Made by a program: the position numbers and the translations under genes. A model generated the notes under the pieces. It was not told the DNA's origin, did no database searches, and saw only the letters and a program-made list of their open reading frames with translations. From a virus: 64,000 bases of DNA. Location: IMG/VR virus record IMGVR_UViG_3300045988_037140, positions 11,143 through 75,142 of that record, one strand, 5' to 3'. Below are positions 1,335 to 54,847 of the stretch, piece after piece (the first letter of the stretch is position 1; each line of letters starts with the position of its first letter).

Positions 1335-1425
1335 TGCCCCGTGGTGTAATGGTTAGCACGGCGGTCTCTAAAACCGTATCCCTCTGAAGGAGTAAGTCTG
1401 GGTTCGAACCCCAGCGGGGCTGCCA
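1335..1425 (+). tRNA. amber-suppressor tRNA (anticodon CUA, reads UAG), type II-like with Gln-like determinants
   Basis: Anticodon stem gcggt/accgt with a 7-nt loop ctCTAaa (U33, A37). T-arm ctggg-ttcgaac-cccag; acceptor tgccccg/cggggct with a U1-U72 mismatch; discriminator G73; CCA. The variable arm is 20 nt (ctct-gaa-ggag hairpin); D-arm gtgt-aatggtta-gcac. Confidence 0.7.
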
Positions 1426-4116: not shown

Positions 4117-4462
4117 GGGGGTATAAAGGTTTCGACGGGGCATTGAGAAGTTAGAACACACGGGTAGGCGACCTCCTTACGGCGCAACAAACAATTAACT
4201 GACAACAATTATTTTGATTCTCACATGGCAGCTTGAGCTTTTGCTCGCTGACCATTAACTGTATACCTCTGGTTTCTTTGTTTTCCTTCTAAAAATAAAG
4301 TGGTGGATGCGTTGTACTTATAACCGGTACGGCCCTATAGTTTAGTTAGTTTGTTCTTGACTTGTGGCTCTATTCAAAAGCTATAAATAAGGACTATCGT
4401 GTAAGAATGTTCTGATTAAGTAGATGTTTCGGACACGGGTTCGACTCCCGTTACCTCCACCA
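4117..4462 (+). ncRNA. ssrA: tmRNA (SsrA), phage-encoded
   Basis: 5' end gggggtataaaggtttcgacgggg and 3' end tttcggacacgggttcgactcccgttacctccacca match the canonical tmRNA ends (GGGG...GGUUUCGACGGGG ... UUCGGACGCGGGUUCAACUCCCG...CUCCACCA). The acceptor gggggta/tacctcc pairs. Candidate tag ORF: ...DNNYFDSHMAA followed by TGA. Confidence 0.75.
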
Positions 4463-5685: not shown

Positions 5686-5791
5686 AAGACGCTTGCCGCA
5701 ACCACTACTATTGTAATAGTCAAAAGGTTAAGACATTTCTCTACAAAAGAAACAATTTGGGTTCGATTCCCAATTACACAAAAGGCGTCTT
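5686..5791 (+). ncRNA. AAGAC-clamped tRNA-like ncRNA module B
   Basis: Clamp aagacgc/gcgtctt. Interior: hairpin tttct-ctacaaa-agaaa (anticodon-arm-like), T-arm ttggg-ttcgatt-cccaa, and a 5-bp A/U acceptor-like pairing tgtaa/ttaca. No CCA. Confidence 0.35.
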
Positions 5792-14901: not shown

Positions 14902-14958
14902 AGAATTTAATCTCCCTTGTCCAAGGGAGTAACTAAAAATCAAAAGGAGATTGATACG

Positions 14959-16449
14959 ATGAATACTTTTATGAACGCTATGAAGCAAGATACCAACTTT
15001 ACCTTGACTGAGAATGGCGCAGTTACCCATAAGTCCACTCTGAATGGTCTTATGGATTTGTTCGCGCTCGGCGGAGCATACCGCACTCGTTCTGATGCAG
15101 ATTGTATCACTTTGTTCAAGGCGGCCTTTGACGAGGATGAAGCTCATGCTTTAAAGTGCCTGTTCTATCTGCGTGATGTGCGCGGCGGCCAGGGTGAGCG
15201 TCGTTTCTTCCGCGTTGTGACCAACTGGCTTGCTTCTCACGAGACTGAAGCCATGCGTCGTAATCTCCAGTTTGTGCCTGAGTACGGTCGCTGGGACGAC
15301 CTGTATATCTTCGTTGGCACTCCTCTGGAGAAGGACGCTTTCAATTTGATGCGCCATCAGCTGGCTTTGGATGTCTCTTGCAAGACTCCTTCTCTGCTCG
15401 CTAAGTGGCTGAAGTCTGAGAATACCAGCTCTAAGGAATCTCGCCATCTGGCGGTGATTACTCGCAATCATTTTGGCATGACCGCAAAACAGTACCGCAA
15501 GACTCTCTCTACTCTGCGTGAGCGTATCCGCATCGTTGAGCGCCTCATGTCTGAGAATCGGTGGGACGAGATTGAGTTTGACAAGATTCCTTCTCGTGCC
15601 GGCGTAATTTATCGCAATGCGTTTGCTCGCCGCGATATGATTAAGGCTAAGTATGAGGCTTTCGCTAAGGATACTGAGACTAAGGTTAATGCCAGTGCTC
15701 TCTATCCTCACGACATTGCACATCGTGCCTTTGAAGCCAATCGTAAGGGATTGGGCGATCCTGATCGTCTGATGCTTCAGAAGTATTGGGAGAACCTTCC
15801 TAACTACTACGGTGATAATATCGAGAATGGCATTGCTGTTGTCGATGTTTCTGGCTCTATGACCGGTGTTCCTATGGAGGCTGCGGTCTCTATGGGTGCG
15901 TATATCGCAGATAAGGCGCACGGTCCTTTTGCCAACCACTTCATTACCTTCTCTGGTCATCCTGAGCTGGTGAAGTTCGAGGGGGCAGACATTACCGATA
16001 AGTTGTGCCGTTGCATTGGTGCAGATTGGGGTATGAACACTAATATCGAAGCTGTCTTCGATATGCTGCTCAACACCGCGATGAAGCAAAGTGTAAAGCC
16101 TGAGGATATGCCTACTCGCGTCTACATCTTCTCTGATATGGAGTTTGACAAGTGTGTTACCAGTAACTCTACTGATCGGGGTGGCTGGGGGTATGGTATG
16201 CACAGCGATGCCATCCAGACTCTCTTTGAGGCTATGAAGGCTAAGTGGGCACGCTACGGTTACAAGATGCCTAGCTGCATCTTCTGGAACCTGAACGCCC
16301 GCAATAACAACATTCCCGCAATCGGTGACGGCTTTAGCTATGTAAGTGGTTTTAGCCCTGTTATGATTCAGCAGATTCTCAGCGGCAAGGACGGACTCGA
16401 TCTGATTCTTGAGAAGCTGGACAGCGAGCGTTATGCTCAGATTCACTAA
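14959..16449 (+). CDS. vWA-domain protein with Ro60/TROVE-like architecture (helical N-terminal part + C-terminal vWA MIDAS DVSGSM)
   Basis: ATG 14959 after aaaaggaga. MIDAS motif IAVVDVSGSMTG, later FSGHP and FSDMEFD. The N-terminal ~300 aa look helical. The following genes are an AAA+ MoxR ATPase and an unknown protein. Confidence 0.5.
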   Translation: MNTFMNAMKQDTNFTLTENGAVTHKSTLNGLMDLFALGGAYRTRSDADCITLFKAAFDEDEAHALKCLFYLRDVRGGQGERRFFRVVTNWLASHETEAMRRNLQFVPEYGRWDDLYIFVGTPLEKDAFNLMRHQLALDVSCKTPSLLAKWLKSENTSSKESRHLAVITRNHFGMTAKQYRKTLSTLRERIRIVERLMSENRWDEIEFDKIPSRAGVIYRNAFARRDMIKAKYEAFAKDTETKVNASALYPHDIAHRAFEANRKGLGDPDRLMLQKYWENLPNYYGDNIENGIAVVDVSGSMTGVPMEAAVSMGAYIADKAHGPFANHFITFSGHPELVKFEGADITDKLCRCIGADWGMNTNIEAVFDMLLNTAMKQSVKPEDMPTRVYIFSDMEFDKCVTSNSTDRGGWGYGMHSDAIQTLFEAMKAKWARYGYKMPSCIFWNLNARNNNIPAIGDGFSYVSGFSPVMIQQILSGKDGLDLILEKLDSERYAQIH

Positions 16450-20054: not shown

Positions 20055-20357
20055 ATGGGAAAAATTACTCGTCATAGCAAAGAGCGCATTGTTCAGAGGA
20101 CTGAGGGATGTGAGAGTTTCGCAGAAGCTAAGAAGTTAGCTAAGCAAGCTAAGCGATCTGGTGCAACTATAAATCAGTTTCAGAAGTTCCCTAAGTTCTT
20201 CTCGTATCTTCAGAACAAGAGAAACCAGACTAATACCTGTTCTATTAGAGTTTATCGAGGCAACATTTATATCTGGCGTGGCAAAGATACATTGATTACC
20301 GCGCATCCTATCCCCGAAAGATATATTAAAGAAATGGAGGCTATTGGCGATGACTGA
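20055..20357 (+). CDS. hypothetical protein
   Basis: 100 aa. Confidence 0.35.
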   Translation: MGKITRHSKERIVQRTEGCESFAEAKKLAKQAKRSGATINQFQKFPKFFSYLQNKRNQTNTCSIRVYRGNIYIWRGKDTLITAHPIPERYIKEMEAIGDD

Positions 20358-21147
20358 TGTTATGAGTAGAGTCCATGACCATCTCGATGAAAGTTTGCAG
20401 AGGTTTGACGAATCAAGAATCGTCGGTATCTTCTTGCAAGGCTCTCAGAACTATGGTCTTGAAACTCCTAAGAGCGATGTTGATACGAAGCTGATTGTTA
20501 CTCCTACTTTTGATGAAGTGGTTCTTAACAAGAAGCCTATCAGCACCACTCATGTAAGAGCAAACAACGAGCATACCGATCTGAAGGATATTCGATTGAT
20601 GCTCGCCACCTTCCGCAAACAGAATCTCAACTTCATTGAAATTCTCTTTACCCCTTATGCTTGGGTAAACCCTCTTTTTGAAAGTGAATGGGGTCGTCTG
20701 ACTGCGGCGCGCGAGCAGATTGCTCACTACTCTCCATATGGCGCAGTTAAGACCATGAAGGGTATCGCTATGGAGAAATATCATGCTATGGAGCATGAAT
20801 ATCCTAGCAAATTGGAAGTACTAGCCGAGTATGGCTACGATCCAAAACAGCTCCATCATCTCCTGCGGGTTCAGGAGTATATCCATAGATACATCAGCGG
20901 TGAATCCTATGAAGCGTGCCTGCATCCTAAGCGTCCTGAGTTTCTTGTAGCTGTTAAACAGGGGTATTTTAACCTTGAGCAGGCCCGCACTTCCGCGGAT
21001 GCGGCTATTGCTGACGTAATTGAAACTGCGGACGCCTTCTGTGAAAAAGTTGGTAAGACTTTCGATACCGCAGTTGATGAACTGCTTGATGATGTGCAGT
21101 ATAATATCGTAAAAAGTGCATTGAAAGGAGAGATTCTAAGTGATTAA
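20344..21147 (+). CDS. pol-beta-superfamily nucleotidyltransferase (GS-x12-DVD motif)
   Basis: GIFLQGSQNYGLETPKSDVDTKLIVTP is the classic minimal NTase signature. A helical C-terminal domain follows. Confidence 0.5.
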   Translation: MAMTDVMSRVHDHLDESLQRFDESRIVGIFLQGSQNYGLETPKSDVDTKLIVTPTFDEVVLNKKPISTTHVRANNEHTDLKDIRLMLATFRKQNLNFIEILFTPYAWVNPLFESEWGRLTAAREQIAHYSPYGAVKTMKGIAMEKYHAMEHEYPSKLEVLAEYGYDPKQLHHLLRVQEYIHRYISGESYEACLHPKRPEFLVAVKQGYFNLEQARTSADAAIADVIETADAFCEKVGKTFDTAVDELLDDVQYNIVKSALKGEILSD

Positions 21148-34960: not shown

Positions 34961-34983
34961 TACCCTAATTGGAGGTGAGGTCA

Positions 34984-36390
34984 TTGGCGGATAATGCTCA
35001 AGTTATTTGGGATTATCTCAAATCAAAAGGATTAAGTAACTGCGGCGCCGCAGGTCTAATGGGGAATCTATTCGCGGAAAGTGGACTTATTCCAACTAAC
35101 TTATAGAACTCATATGAGAGCAAGTTAGGAATGAACGATGCCTCGTATACTGCGGCTGTTGATAATGGCTCCTATACCAATTTCACGCATGATTCTGCTG
35201 GATATGGTTTAGCTCAATGGACATATTGGAGCCGCAAGCAAGGTCTGTTTTAGCTGTGCAAAAGTCGAGGAAAGTCTATTGGTGACTTGAACACTCAACT
35301 AGATTTTTTATATCAGGAACTAACTACAAGTTATTCCTAGCTATTAAAAATCTTGAAGACTACCTCATCTGTTGAAGAAGCATCTAATTTAGTGGTCACT
35401 CAATTTGAAAGACCGGTAGATCAAAGCTTTGATGCACTAAAACAACGTGCTTTATATAGTCAACGTTACTTCAATACTTATTCAACGCAAAAGGAGGAAA
35501 TGGCTAAGATGAAATATTCAAACGCCAATCAACCATTGGTTTGCATGATGACCAATAGTACCTGTTATAAGCAAACCCGTAAAATGGATATTAAAGGTGT
35601 ACTCTGGCATAGTACAGGCGCCAATAATAAAACTATTAAACGTTATGTCCAACCATCTGAGAATGATAAAAATTATCAATCTCTGATTGCTAAAATTGGT
35701 AAAAATACCAGTAGAACCGATTGGAATCATAGCTCGTAGCAAGCAGGCGTAAACGCTTGGATTGGTGCTCTTGCAGATGGAAGCGTAGCCGCGGTACAAA
35801 CGTTGCCTTGGAATTATAGACCTTGGGGCTGCGGCTCAGGCCCTAAAGGTAGTTGTAATACTGGATGGATTCAATTTGAAATTTGCGAAGACAATCTAAG
35901 TGACCCCAACTACTTCGCTAAAGTCTACAAAGAGGCTTGCGAATTGACCGCCTACTTATGTAAGACATATAATATCAATCCAAATGGTTCTGTAAATGTA
36001 AATGGCGTAATAGTCCCAACTATTCTTTGCCATCAGGATAGTTATCAGCTTGGTCTTGGCAGTAATCATGCCGATGTATACCACTGGTTCAAGAAATATG
36101 GCAAAGATATGGCAACTGTCCGCAAAGATGTTGCTGCTTTAATGCAGTCTAAAGTTATCGAGGAGGATGATGAAGACATGACTCAAGAGAAATTCAACGA
36201 AATGATGAATGTATATTTAAGCCAGCTTGCTGCACAACCAGTTACTTGGGAACAAGATGCAATGACTTGGGCACAAGCTAATGGCTTAATCAATGGCAAT
36301 GAAAAGGGCCAATTAATGCCAAAGCGTTTTATGACTCGTGGTGAATTTGCAGCCGTTCTAAAACGTTATGCTGAAAAGAGTGGTCAATAA
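34984..36390 (+). CDS. modular endolysin: phage-lysozyme2-type N-terminal domain (GAAGLMGNLFAESG) + central domain + C-terminal SLH cell-wall-binding domain; four in-frame TAG codons
   Basis: TTG start 8 nt after ggagg. In-frame TAGs at 35104, 35251, 35338 and 35737 join the ORF-track pieces 35353-35739 and 35803-36390 in one frame. C-terminal WAQANGLINGNEKGQLMPKRFMTRGEFAAVLKRY is an S-layer-homology motif. Confidence 0.65.
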
Positions 36391-36716
36391 TGACTCGTCA
36401 AACAAGAGGGAAAAGAAGACACAACTAGAAGAGAGAATTTTCTAAACAACTTATTTGCGATATTCGCTCTTTATTGTGGATTGTAACTATCTCTGGTATT
36501 GCTCTTGCTTTCTATTGCGTACATCTCGGTTATTTAGGCACTCTTCCATGGATTAGTGCATTAGTAGGATTGCCATGGTCTGCGCATGGTATTGTTTGCT
36601 CTTTTTACTTAAACATGAGTAAATCCGATCACCGCAAGGGTGGGATTACTTATGATTTAGCTATGTGTGAGAAACAATAGCAGCAAGTAGTCGAGGATGA
36701 AGCAACCATTTAATAT
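36390..36716 (+). CDS. holin (two TM helices) with a possible N-terminal KR-rich extension read through TAG (antiholin-like dual start?)
   Basis: ORF-track core 36474-36680 (two TM). ATG 36390 overlaps the lysin TAA and is in the same frame through TAG 36426. The TAG at 36678 extends the C-terminus by QQVVEDEATI to TAA 36714-36716. Confidence 0.5.
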
Positions 36717-43751: not shown

Positions 43752-43790
43752 TTAGATCGGTAAGAGGATTATGCCTCTTACCGATTTCTT
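43752..43790 (+). terminator. rho-independent terminator
   Basis: atcggtaagagg-attatg-cctcttaccgat followed by ttctttt. Confidence 0.55.
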
Positions 43791-43796
43791 TTACTT

Positions 43797-44714
43797 ATGA
43801 TTTATTATATATTATCAGGCTTGGTTATTCTTGCGTTAATAGGATATGTTTTATATCTCCGCAATAATCGGCTTTAGGTAGTATTGATAAATAAAGAAAG
43901 ACAAGAAGAAAATAAGCGTATTGAACAAGATATTGCATTGAAATAGAGAGAATTAGCAAAAGTAAAAGAAGATATTGTATCACATAATGAAATTGTCAAT
44001 TCTTTAAACGATACTGCGAATAAATTGCGGGAAAGCGCTGAATAGCGAGCGAAAGAGAGCGCTAAGGCTCAATTTGAAAAGAAAAGTAAAGAGCTTGATG
44101 AAACATATCAAGCTAAAGAAAAATATCATTTAGCAGAACTTCAGCAGATAACTAATCAAATTTCACATTAGCAAGATAAACTCCATGAATTAGAAGCTAA
44201 ATAGTTATCTTATATCTAGGCTCAATAGCGCCAAGAAGCGATTGCCGCAGATTAGGACTATTATCGTCTTGCTATTGATGAATTTAGTTTGAATGATATT
44301 ACTCTATTGCGTGATTTGCAAATTCACTTTGTGAAAAAGGAAATCATTGATAAAGTAATATGGGAGACCTATTATCGTCCTGCGTATGATATTCTTATGA
44401 CCCATCTATTTGCCACTAATAAAGGTAAAGTATGCGGTATCTATAAGATTACCGATCTAACAACTGGTTAGGCTTATATTGGTTAGTCTGTTGATATTAA
44501 AGAGCGTTTTAGACAGCACATTAAAACCTCTTTAGCATACGGACCTGCGACTAATAAGTTATATTAGGCGATGCAAAAATCTGGTCAATATAATTTTATA
44601 TTTGAGGTTTTGGAAGAAGTGCCTAGAGATTAGTTAAATGAACGAGAGACTTATTGGATTGAGTTCTATAAGACTAAAGAGCTAGGTATGAATGGAACTC
44701 GTGGAGGTTCATAA
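43797..44714 (+). CDS. GIY-YIG endonuclease domain fused to an N-terminal TM + coiled-coil (i-spanin-like) region; about 13 in-frame TAG codons
   Basis: ATG 43797. N-terminus MIYYILSGLVILALIGYVLYL (TM), then a Q/E/K-rich coiled coil. C-terminus GIYKITDLTTG*AYIG*SVDIKERFRQH...WIEFYKT = GIY-YIG. TAGs fall at conserved-motif positions. Ends at TAA 44712-44714. The ORF track shows only the fragment 44289-44471. Confidence 0.55.
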
Positions 44715-45025
44715 TGTTTAAAGTGATTGCGAGTCGTGGCGCAGGCAAGACAACTAGCTTAATGCGCTATGCAAATGATTTAGCATATAAATATCCTGAT
44801 AAGATGGTGCTCTTTGTTACTCAACATCCTCAACTGATGGTTAAAAAGTTCTTAGAGTTAACAAAAGAGCGTAGTCTACCGCAGAATTTAGGATTTATTA
44901 GCTATGGATATTTTCTAACAAAAGCGAGAGGTATGAAATGTATTGCTGTTATTGATGAACTAGATAGCTGGCTCGATCAATTTAACATTGTAGGATACAC
45001 AAATACTGTGGGAGACGATAACTGA
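44714..45025 (+). CDS. small P-loop protein (SRGAGKTT)
   Basis: 103 aa; Walker A. Confidence 0.4.
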   Translation: MFKVIASRGAGKTTSLMRYANDLAYKYPDKMVLFVTQHPQLMVKKFLELTKERSLPQNLGFISYGYFLTKARGMKCIAVIDELDSWLDQFNIVGYTNTVGDDN

Positions 45026-54082: not shown

Positions 54083-54847
54083 ATGAGTCGTTTTATTAAA
54101 GTTATCACAAGTTTAATCATTATATTGTCTTTATGCGGATGTAGCTATGGCCTAGCGGTCACTACTCAAGCCTATTCCGTGCCGTATAACGAAACTGTTA
54201 GTTATACTCTTGATGATATGGATACATTGGTTGAGCTTATTGCGGAACAAATCTCGAATATGAACGCCGCACATCAAATGGCTGAAGCTGCTAGATAGCT
54301 AGGCTATAGTGAAGACCATGACGTCATTGTATTAGCAAAACAAGAACACGCTGATGCAAATGCTTTGAGAATGAAATATCAAAGCATATATGATCAACTC
54401 ATGGAACATTGGCATCAAAAGGAAGAAGAGTACCCAACAGCTACTTATATATGGACCTACTTCAAAGATCTGGGCTACAGTAACCAAGTTTGCGCTGGCA
54501 TTCTTGGTAATATAATGGCTGAAACTGGAGGTAACACATTAGACATTCAAGCCACGATTTCTGGTAACGGATATTATGGTATATGTCAATGGAATAAAGC
54601 CTACTCAAATGTATGGGGAGCCTCGTTAGAAGAGCAATGCGACTATCTGCGAGATACTATTGAGTACGAGTTCGATACATTCGGTTATGTTTATAAGAGA
54701 CATTTTGATTACAATAGTTTCTTGAATTTAACCGACATTAAGAGCGCTGCTCTAGCATTTGCTAAATGCTATGAGAGATGCGGTTCTGGGAGCTATTATA
54801 CGCGACAGCAAAATGCTATTGCTGCATATAATTACTTCATAAGTTAA
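54083..54847 (+). CDS. lipoprotein with a phage-lysozyme2-type peptidoglycan-hydrolase domain; one in-frame TAG
   Basis: Signal peptide + lipobox LSLCGC. TAG 54296 joins ORF-track pieces 54083-54298 and 54365-54847 in one frame. VCAGILGNIMAETGGN is paralogous to the endolysin N-terminal domain. Confidence 0.55.

Follow-up and report, generated by a model that had tools for sequence, protein, structure and literature searches.

A TAG-rich gene for a predicted membrane-tethered GIY-YIG nuclease in the replication module of large phages

A TAG-rich nuclease gene and its product

The window analysed here, a stretch of 64,000 nucleotides of the IMG/VR virus record IMGVR_UViG_3300045988_037140, carries a gene of 305 codons which, when TAG is translated as glutamine, encodes a protein with an N-terminal transmembrane anchor, a long helical stalk, a two-helix adaptor, and a C-terminal GIY-YIG endonuclease domain (Table 1; positions are those of the window unless another locus is named). 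An earlier note on this DNA had described a single open reading frame (ORF) in which a genuine GIY-YIG nuclease is preceded by a membrane anchor and a helical stretch, and this description is borne out. The note had also counted about 13 in-frame TAG codons, or about 4% of the codons; the number is 12, and the density, 0.039 per codon, agrees with it. Four of the 12 are located in the nuclease domain. No TAA or TGA occurs before the end of the frame, the remaining two frames of the gene contain 15 and 40 of these codons, and a random frame of 305 codons at the base composition of the gene would be free of both with a probability of 2.5e-9.

Among 24 members of the family aligned from their DNA, the residues opposite the TAG columns are mostly Q, E, and K. 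At codon 230, which belongs to the invariant YIGQS motif, all members without a TAG exhibit a sense glutamine codon. As this column pairs TAG with sense glutamine in every relative lacking TAG, TAG is, on the evidence of the alignment, read as glutamine in this gene. None of the plausible genes of the window is terminated by TAG, all stops being TAA or TGA. A single tRNA with the anticodon CUA is present in the window and is presumed to be the decoder of the TAG codons of the gene. The features expected of genetic code 15 are found together: TAG at glutamine positions, a suppressor tRNA, no TAG stops, and purifying selection across the TAG codons. Decoding as serine, leucine, or tyrosine was also considered in view of the long extra arm of the suppressor tRNA, and was rejected because the YIGQS column and further columns match TAG with sense glutamine. 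This extra arm of about 17 nucleotides is unusual for a glutamine-type tRNA; the phage phAss-1, which encodes a homologue of the gene, has a long Sup-CTA tRNA (88 nucleotides) beside a short one. A pseudogene or a chance ORF was rejected in view of the conservation of the gene, its ratio of nonsynonymous to synonymous substitution rates (dN/dS), and the lack of internal TAA and TGA codons.

Regarding the N-terminal part of the protein, a hydrophobic 19-mer is found at the N-terminus in 97% of the family representatives (n = 136), and the anchor is located at the extreme N-terminus in the 136 full-length representatives. The 15 residues following the anchor contain 3.7 lysine or arginine residues on average, versus 0.09 before it, and this bias is observed in 136 of 136 representatives. 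Based on the positive-inside rule applied to this bias, the predicted topology is N-out/C-in, with the stalk and the nuclease facing the cytoplasm. In the AlphaFold2 model (mean predicted local distance difference test score, pLDDT, of 82.9), residues 2-151 form a single unbroken helix, with a pLDDT of 63-93 by block, and the stalk is weakly similar to the N-termini of ATP synthase b and PRK12705. Residues 1-150 had been described as an anchor followed by a coiled coil rich in Q, E, and K. The anchor (residues 2-21) stands, as does the helix, which the model shows as a long stalk extending to residue 151; the coiled coil is only plausible, the heptad periodicity not being significant (see below). 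We infer that the stalk helix may mediate dimerisation.

The two helices of the adaptor comprise residues 162-175 and 181-204 in the model, with a pLDDT of about 90. The attribution of the whole of residues 150-305 to a GIY-YIG nuclease was correct as to the nature of the domain and too generous as to its extent: from the limits of the Pfam and TIGR01453 matches, the domain starts near residue 213, and residues 152-204 constitute a separate module. Residues 213-293 are matched by the Pfam family PF01541 (E 4.9e-8), and the TIGR01453 model 'group I intron endonuclease' gives 69 bits for a cut-off of 56. The best Foldseek match of the model is the catalytic domain of I-TevI (1ln0, probability 1.00), and the fold of the catalytic domain superimposes on 1ln0 and 1mk0 with TM scores of 0.76-0.78 and root mean square deviations of 2.6-3.1 A. 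The GIY motif corresponds to G214-I215-Y216 and the YIG motif to Y227-I228-G229. In 93 members with identities down to 27%, G214, I215, Y216, Y227, G229, R237, and E284 do not vary, and at least 90% of these diverse members retain H241 and N299. The catalytic arginine, histidine, glutamate, and asparagine are those that we take to be equivalent to R27, H31, E75, and N90 of I-TevI. As the catalytic set is intact and conserved in the 93 members, the nuclease is expected to be catalytically competent. Across the family, conservation is highest in the nuclease, lower in the adaptor, and lowest at the N-terminus.

Table 1. Features of the nuclease gene, of its product and of the related parts of the window (residue and codon numbers are those of the gene product with TAG read as glutamine).
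Feature	Position	Strand	Details
Suppressor tRNA, anticodon CUA	1335..1425	+	Found by ARAGORN; Rfam tRNA 54.5 bits; tRNA fold; 91 nt, long extra arm
Endolysin	34969..36390	+	Phage_lysozyme2, Amidase_2, and S-layer-homology (SLH) domains
Winged-helix-like protein, 87 aa	43484..43747	+	Pfam match barely over the cut-off
Terminator-like hairpin	43754..43787	+	GC-rich, 14 pairs followed by a T-run; ends 10 nt before the ATG
Whole nuclease gene	43797..44714	+	305 codons if TAG = Gln; start ATG 43797; stop TAA 44712-44714
N-terminal transmembrane anchor	43800..43859	+	Residues 2-21, IYYILSGLVILALIGYVLYL; hydrophobic, uncharged
E/Q/K-rich helical stalk	43860..44249	+	Residues 22-151; length and sequence vary across the family
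Span of the TAG codons	43875..44633	+	First bases 43875, 43944, 44043, 44169, 44202, 44217, 44226, 44253, 44469, 44484, 44565, 44631
TAG codon numbers			27, 50, 83, 125, 136, 141, 144, 153, 225, 230, 257, 279
Two-helix adaptor	44250..44408	+	Residues 152-204, DYYRL...DITLLR...IDKVIWETYY; many invariant alignment columns
GIY-YIG catalytic domain	44433..44696	+	Residues 213-300; Y216, Y227, R237, H241, E284, N299
Shine-Dalgarno sequence and start of the next gene	44703..44716	+	GGAGG within the last codons (TRGGS) and the stop of the nuclease gene
P-loop protein, 103 aa	44714..45025	+	Walker A GAGKTT, Walker B VIDELD; start overlaps the stop of the nuclease gene

Distribution, TAG load and genomic context of the family

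The 54 ORFs of at least 100 amino acids in the window hold 37 TAG codons, 12 of which belong to the nuclease gene. The other 53 ORFs contain 0.0016 TAG per codon (Poisson P = 2e-13 for the difference), so the gene is the most UAG-dense of the window, as had been claimed. TAG represents 46% of the glutamine codons in the gene versus 4% elsewhere in the window (binomial P = 1e-10). The other TAG codons are found in the endolysin gene (4), a holin-like gene (2), the RecJ gene (3), and a few others; the TAG fraction of the glutamine codons is 0.13 for the endolysin, 0.29 for the holin-like gene, and 0.46 for the nuclease gene.

This excess of TAG is also observed in related phages. When genes within 10 kb on either side are ranked by TAG density, the nuclease gene is first in 22 of 27 related loci (0.014-0.075 versus 0.0004-0.006 TAG per codon), in lineages that range from 95% to about 33% identity; a wider, genome-scale ranking for the window's own lineage covers about 83 kb of about 148 kb. 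The recoded lineages exhibit 6-25 TAG in the nuclease gene, with densities 10-40 times those of the neighbouring genes, and the gene persists in relatives in which it contains no TAG. Together, the first rank in most loci and the retention of the gene by TAG-free relatives give comparative support to the earlier suggestion that translation depends on the supply of suppressor tRNA. The first TAG, at codon 27, is located just past the anchor and occupies the same alignment column in 7 of the 24 aligned members. As the GIY-YIG homing genes that reside in the same recoded genomes carry only 0-2 TAG each, the TAG load is peculiar to the present gene rather than common to GIY-YIG genes.

A contig of a close relative, IMGVR_UViG_3300045988_054378, covers the region just past the right end of the window (loci L111 and L136). 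The most heavily recoded genes of this relative include several DNA-cutting or rearranging enzymes: a RuvC-like resolvase (L111 12409-12888, + strand) has 9 TAG in 159 codons (0.057), which makes it denser than the nuclease gene, and a small serine recombinase (L111 16901-17515, - strand) has 7 TAG in 204 codons (0.034). Tail-fibre-like genes in the lineage have 0.010-0.016 TAG per codon, versus 0.039-0.043 for the nuclease gene. On the same contig, two TAG-rich ORFs (L136 5774-7919, - strand) with 10 and 6 TAG appear, by eye only, to be reverse-transcriptase-like and Avd-like.

With regard to the extent of the family, a word-indexed search yielded hundreds of full-length homologues (303-305 amino acids, 54-99% identity, on contigs of 90-210 kb), and a profile search yielded at least 748 clusters (50% identity) at E <= 1e-30, mostly with coverage of the whole profile. 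The whole architecture is retained in IMG/VR loci down to 26% identity. With TAG read as glutamine, dN/dS is 0.05-0.16 relative to four relatives, and the signal of purifying selection is present in both halves of the gene. In more than 100 loci, we found neither an N-terminal half alone nor a TAA or TGA between the two halves. Separate genes divided by a true stop in related phages, and an N-terminus corresponding to the standard DNA-binding extension of homing endonucleases, were the two outcomes named beforehand as fatal to the fused-gene description, and neither was observed. The gene is a recombination mosaic relative to locus L016, with a synonymous divergence (dS) of 0.06 in the N-terminal half and 1.57 in the C-terminal half. 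Relative to locus L019, the C-terminal protein sequence is nearly identical despite a dS of about 2.9.

The gene order gyrB-gyrA-ligase-(66 amino acids)-wHTH (winged helix-turn-helix, 87 amino acids)-nuclease gene-(small gene)-thyA or thyX-TrmB-like-YorF-AAA_24-YorH-DnaB-primase-RecJ holds to about 30% identity, and the surrounding genes, among them yorF, yorG, and yorH, constitute an SPbeta-like replication module. As the first set of loci had been recovered via the nuclease gene itself, an independent set was recovered via the neighbouring gene yorF. In all 45 of the yorF-found loci with enough upstream sequence, the nuclease gene is located 1.1-3.1 kb upstream of yorF, and 43 of these loci have it as a single ORF of 302-361 amino acids with an N-terminal anchor and the GIY motif at residues 211-262. 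A longer ORF of 611 amino acids is found at one of the 45 loci (L195). At locus L215 (3393-5219), the gene is shortened to 256 amino acids within the nuclease domain and is followed by an ORF of 302 amino acids with GIY at residue 17; a homing endonuclease or an intron may have been inserted there into the membrane-nuclease gene. Within the replication module, the gene is a core component passed on by vertical descent in a large clade of phages of 100-200 kb, recovered from gut and other metagenomes. Judging from the homologues compared, it is not a recent fusion.

Among 50,697 phage records searched with tblastn, only phAss-1 matches beyond the nuclease domain. Its homologue (L001 4434-5414, equivalent to OQ749652.1 63005-63985, - strand) is one ORF of 326 codons with 8 TAG. 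Because of these TAG codons, it appears in the deposited record as two coding sequences for a 'hypothetical protein', WIC39637.1 and WIC39636.1, separated by a gap. phAss-1 is a code-15 phage in which TAG is translated as glutamine, and a text search of the paper describing it (PMC10607447) gave no mention of GIY-YIG. A literature search on transmembrane, coiled-coil GIY-YIG phage proteins returned nothing specific to the family. A scan of bacterial genomes retrieved only phage-sized contigs, binned with metagenome-assembled genomes (MAGs) of Eubacterium, Oscillospiraceae, Lachnospiraceae, and Clostridia. This binning, together with the SLH domain of the endolysin, points weakly to Clostridia as hosts; the SLH domain may reflect a host whose cell-wall polymers bind such domains. 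Another secreted lysozyme-like protein is encoded at 54083-54847.

As regards expression, no Shine-Dalgarno sequence is present between the hairpin and the start codon of the nuclease gene. An equivalent hairpin is found at the same site in nearly all the relatives examined, including relatives with a TAG-free gene; the stem sequences differ between relatives and therefore covary, and most relatives also lack a Shine-Dalgarno sequence. The hairpin would insulate the gene from the upstream wHTH gene, and this insulation appears to be older than the TAG load, since the hairpin and the missing Shine-Dalgarno sequence are shared by relatives in which the gene is TAG-free. Of 18 diverse loci that were mapped, 17 have the wHTH gene directly beside the nuclease gene, the order of the two being swapped in phAss-1, and only 3 have a detected P-loop gene downstream.

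The window also contains 31 tRNAs and a transfer-messenger RNA (tmRNA) between 281 and 14765 on the + strand (ARAGORN listed 33 genes). The tmRNA, at 4117-4462, scores 100 bits with Rfam, and the array includes odd calls such as a tRNA with a 4-base anticodon (8450-8523) and a cysteine tRNA with the anticodon ACA (5709-5782). A cluster of TAG-free genes of the tRNA/RNA-repair type (14917-16449, 20344-21147, 23551-24819, and 27823-28794, + strand) comprises a PHROG 850 'RNA-binding protein', which is possibly RtcB-like, a nucleotidyltransferase, an RNA ligase, and a tRNA-His guanylyltransferase (Thg1-like). This cluster suggests that the phage maintains its own tRNA pool. Two classes of codon usage can be distinguished in the window, as TAG-free genes favour CAG and TAG-bearing genes favour CAA and have a lower GC content; for example, the TAG-free gene at 31256-32752 has 33 CAG, no CAA, and a GC content of 0.51, and the endolysin gene has 22 CAA and 5 CAG.

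Proposed function and competing explanations

We propose that the gene product is a bitopic, membrane-tethered GIY-YIG endonuclease, produced late and gated by TAG, and most likely directed against the DNA of superinfecting phages, a proposal whose chances we consider evenly balanced. The short N-out anchor would hold a rigid cytoplasmic stalk of about 130 residues, with the adaptor and the I-TevI-type endonuclease at its tip. Three stacked devices, namely the upstream terminator, the missing ribosome-binding site, and, in recoded lineages, the TAG codons, would keep expression low and late. With 12 TAG codons, the full-length yield would scale with the twelfth power of the per-codon suppression efficiency, so that the nuclease would appear only once tRNA-Gln(CUA) dominates decoding; before the code switch, just harmless N-terminal fragments would be made. 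The four TAG codons of the catalytic domain would also bar an internally initiated or otherwise shorter active nuclease. Production of the protein would probably have to await the switch of the cell's genetic code by the phage. By analogy with SNIPE, a bacterial membrane nuclease discussed below, the tether would keep the enzyme off the bulk of the intracellular DNA and steer its action towards DNA at the inner side of the membrane; the genome of a superinfecting phage, attacked while it is injected (superinfection exclusion), would most likely be its target. We infer its production late in infection, the nature of its DNA substrate, and its part in exclusion.

Several observations weigh against this proposal. 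Genes for exclusion tend to be accessory and variable, whereas this one belongs to the core and is located in a replication module, and late production is an odd schedule for exclusion. The TAG richness could just mark a class of late-expressed genes: the TAG positions turn over fast, as they are spread over 123 alignment columns in the 24 members, and the GC content of the gene is the lowest among those measured. In phAss-1, the homologue is only seventh of 116 ORFs in TAG density, a 3150-codon ORF with 110 TAG being ahead of it, and the late and structural ORFs exhibit TAG fractions of the glutamine codons of 0.29-0.75, versus 0.33 in the homologue. In a simple test, the heptad periodicity of residues 25-150 is not significant (p = 0.13). 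With regard to the likeness with SNIPE, neither DUF4041 (PF13250, at E <= 1) nor T5orf172 (PF10544/PF13455) was detected in any of the 93 members, and the PD-Lambda-1 model was absent from the PADLOC matches listed.

Some of these observations would fit a gene whose TAG load is not a selected gate. A late-class, terminator-insulated gene could have accumulated neutral CAG to TAG changes once the suppressor was present, and its AT-rich, glutamine-rich helix would gather many of them. We regard this explanation as possible, if unlikely. The poor conservation of the TAG positions, the similar TAG fractions of the phAss-1 late and structural genes, the low GC content with the preference for CAA in TAG-bearing genes and for CAG in TAG-free ones, and the fact that relatives with a TAG-free gene share the terminator and the missing Shine-Dalgarno sequence, which thus appear to predate the TAG load, are all consistent with it. 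However, the tail-fibre-like genes are recoded to a much lower density than the nuclease gene, and the endolysin and holin-like genes fall below it in their TAG fraction. Moreover, the first rank in TAG density is found again, independently, in lineages that share as little as 33% identity, and the densest genes are enriched for enzymes that cut or rearrange DNA.

The same tethered nuclease might instead serve the phage itself in the metabolism of its DNA, at a site of replication or packaging associated with the membrane, where it might trim or debranch replication intermediates, degrade host DNA late, or serve as an organising anchor like p16.7. As the gene is a core gene inside the replication module, this is a serious rival, even though we consider it unlikely. 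It is favoured by the fixed position beside a small wHTH gene and by the universal presence in the yorF-found loci, as would be the case for an essential function; late, low expression would also suit a nuclease that is harmful to replicating DNA if made early. However, since a close relative already has a RuvC-like resolvase, there is no lack of a debranching enzyme, and a Holliday-junction resolvase role was down-weighted for this reason. We know of no structure-specific activity for GIY-YIG domains of the homing endonuclease type. Furthermore, the need for membrane binding is left unexplained, and homology to p16.7 was not found.

A selfish, free-standing GIY-YIG homing endonuclease with an odd N-terminal extension, kept silent as is common for such genes, is very unlikely. 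The catalytic domain belongs to the type found in group I intron endonucleases and shares 35-55% identity with intron-borne or free-standing homing genes of the same genomes; the neighbourhood of nucleotide-metabolism genes, the strongly repressed expression, and the intragenic recombination mosaic would also fit. Nevertheless, the classical GIY-YIG homing genes of these genomes (loci L034, L037, L051, L057, L065; L188, L190, L195) are differently built and differently distributed, with GIY at residues 3-9 and a C-terminal extension, and they interrupt gyrB, dnaB, or recJ, probably within group I introns, or precede yorF in some genomes only. In contrast, the gene studied here occupies one fixed position in all the yorF-found loci and is under the purifying selection described above. 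No NUMOD, IENR1, or HTH-type DNA-binding module is detected in it by Pfam, its domain order is reversed, with the catalytic domain ending the protein, and it has a membrane anchor. Moreover, it is rich in TAG, whereas the true homing genes are poor in TAG. On these comparisons, the gene appears fixed and is not a mobile homing endonuclease. Given the identity between their catalytic domains, the nuclease head was probably exchanged with, or recruited from, the pool of co-resident homing genes.

A mainly cis-acting ORF, an attenuator instead of, or as well as, a protein-coding gene, in which ribosome release at codon 27 would uncouple translation from transcription, lower the expression of the downstream thyA-dhfr genes, and sense suppression, is highly improbable. 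The first TAG, just after the anchor in a column shared by several members, and the position of the gene between a terminator and tightly packed genes, the next start overlapping its stop, could be understood in this way. However, purifying selection on the protein is strong through to the C-terminus, the downstream gene has its own strong Shine-Dalgarno sequence, the downstream genes are TAG-free and of the early type, and the TAG-free relatives share the layout.

The last alternative, raised by the earlier note, is that an i-spanin-like or lysis-accessory protein acquired a homing endonuclease by in-frame insertion; it is already largely refuted and hardly credible. In its favour are the outward resemblance of the anchor and helical region to Rz, a weak match to PHROG 739 (Rz-like spanin; E = 0.006, residues 4-95), which is the only spanin signal, and the TAG codons of the window's lysis genes. 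Against it, the whole architecture is found at all 45 yorF-found loci, and no stalk-only or split homologue occurs in the more than 100 loci examined. An i-spanin has a type II topology (N-in, with the C-terminal domain outside the membrane), and the charge pattern predicts the opposite orientation. The lysis cassette is elsewhere, with the endolysin and holin-like genes at 34969-36713, 7 kb off; no o-spanin partner is present, as the neighbours are the wHTH and P-loop genes, neither of which matches a lipoprotein family; and the endolysin SLH domain and the binning with Clostridia MAGs point weakly to hosts in which spanins are not expected.

Returning to the tethered, TAG-gated nuclease, a broader version of this proposal can be formulated, although we consider it rather doubtful. 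The family would be a clade-wide core nuclease similar to SNIPE, built independently from a homing catalytic domain, that destroys the DNA of competitors entering a cell that is already infected; its UAG codons would act as an ultrasensitive timer, releasing the dangerous enzyme once the genetic code of the cell has been switched, and recoding would act as a safety interlock. If so, the UAG-dense RuvC-like resolvase and serine recombinase would join the nuclease under a recoding interlock for DNA-cutting enzymes, and recoding as an interlock would extend beyond lysis and structural genes.

The catalytic domain and the recoding phenomenon are already known, and the design of a tethered nuclease has one characterised precedent, SNIPE. 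The combination of features is new, as are the status of a widespread, unannotated core phage gene and the conserved contrast between a TAG-loaded nuclease gene and a TAG-free operon, with TAG-poor homing genes as an internal control. Membrane-anchored nucleases acting on entering DNA were first characterised in 2026, and the present family, which is phage-encoded, very widespread given its number of clusters, and unannotated, would be a second form with another nuclease subtype. One heavily recoded gene in a TAG-free operon, maintained over deep divergence, provides a natural test of recoding as a regulator of expression, for which the TAG-poor homing endonucleases of the same fold serve as internal controls. 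The gene could also be used as a reporter of the timing and completeness of the code switch during infection.

Comparison with known systems

The closest design is that of SNIPE (PD-lambda-1), an E. coli membrane protein that cleaves the DNA of phages while it is being injected (Saxton et al., Nature 2026, PMC13190303). SNIPE comprises an N-out anchor, an elongated cytoplasmic body with DUF4041, and a C-terminal GIY-YIG nuclease; without its anchor it is toxic, and a phage genome already in the cell is unharmed (PMC13190303). The SNIPE gene, which we recovered via the primers of the supplement, is located in a lambdoid prophage beside ren, P, and O, and its homologues carry PF10544, PF13455, and PF13250. 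The predicted product of the gene studied here similarly exhibits a single N-terminal anchor with a tiny external N-terminus, a cytoplasmic body with an elongated helical region, and an adaptor directly before a C-terminal nuclease of the GIY-YIG superfamily. The conservation gradient is the same, and both genes are phage-borne beside replication genes. When the two families were compared with hhalign, the end of the stalk and the adaptor aligned with the start of DUF4041 (Prob 56%, E 1.2e-4, 76 columns), a marginal match in which the adaptor junction is the only region that aligns; the single-sequence hhalign comparison with SNIPE was negative.

In contrast, SNIPE has 500 amino acids and a nuclease of the T5orf172/MUG113 type, whereas the protein described here has 305 amino acids, a two-helix adaptor, and an I-TevI-type nuclease (PF01541), and the globular core of DUF4041 is missing from its AlphaFold2 model. 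SNIPE is a constitutive accessory defence gene of a proteobacterial prophage, whereas the present gene is core, tightly repressed, and loaded with TAG, in large phages that probably infect Clostridia. The gene product shares the design of SNIPE and cannot be filed as a member of the SNIPE family, since the two defining domains, DUF4041 and T5orf172, were looked for and not found.

I-TevI, Seg, and the phage homing endonucleases of TIGR01453 have a homologous catalytic domain with all the catalytic residues. For I-TevI, too, a delay of translation until late in infection was reportedly described by Gibb and Edgell in 2010. Homing endonucleases consist of an N-terminal catalytic domain, a linker, and a DNA-binding domain, and are sporadic and mobile, whereas the present gene encodes a membrane-anchored protein with a C-terminal catalytic domain and no recognisable DNA-binding module, and is fixed in the 45 yorF-found loci. 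Uzume (UzuA), a defence system made up of one GIY-YIG gene, has a C-terminal GIY-YIG domain of the same subtype, and 80 of the 93 members match its model PDLC03973 (best E 1.6e-10). However, the match is confined to the nuclease domain (profile positions 182-276 of 278), and no N-terminal similarity was detected. An N-out anchor followed by a long cytoplasmic helix is also found in phi29 p16.7, RNase Y, and ATP synthase b, in which the heads are a DNA-binding domain, a KH-HD RNase, and an F1-binding part, respectively; there is no homology with these proteins beyond the composition of the helix.

As for the recoding itself, Borges et al. reportedly described, in 2021/2022, gut phages whose late and lysis genes are recoded from TAG to glutamine. 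The phages studied here resemble these code-15 gut phages in the reading of TAG as glutamine, the phage-encoded suppressor tRNA, the clustering of TAG in some genes, and the recoding of lysis genes. They differ from them in that the heavily recoded gene encodes a nuclease and is located within an otherwise TAG-free replication operon.

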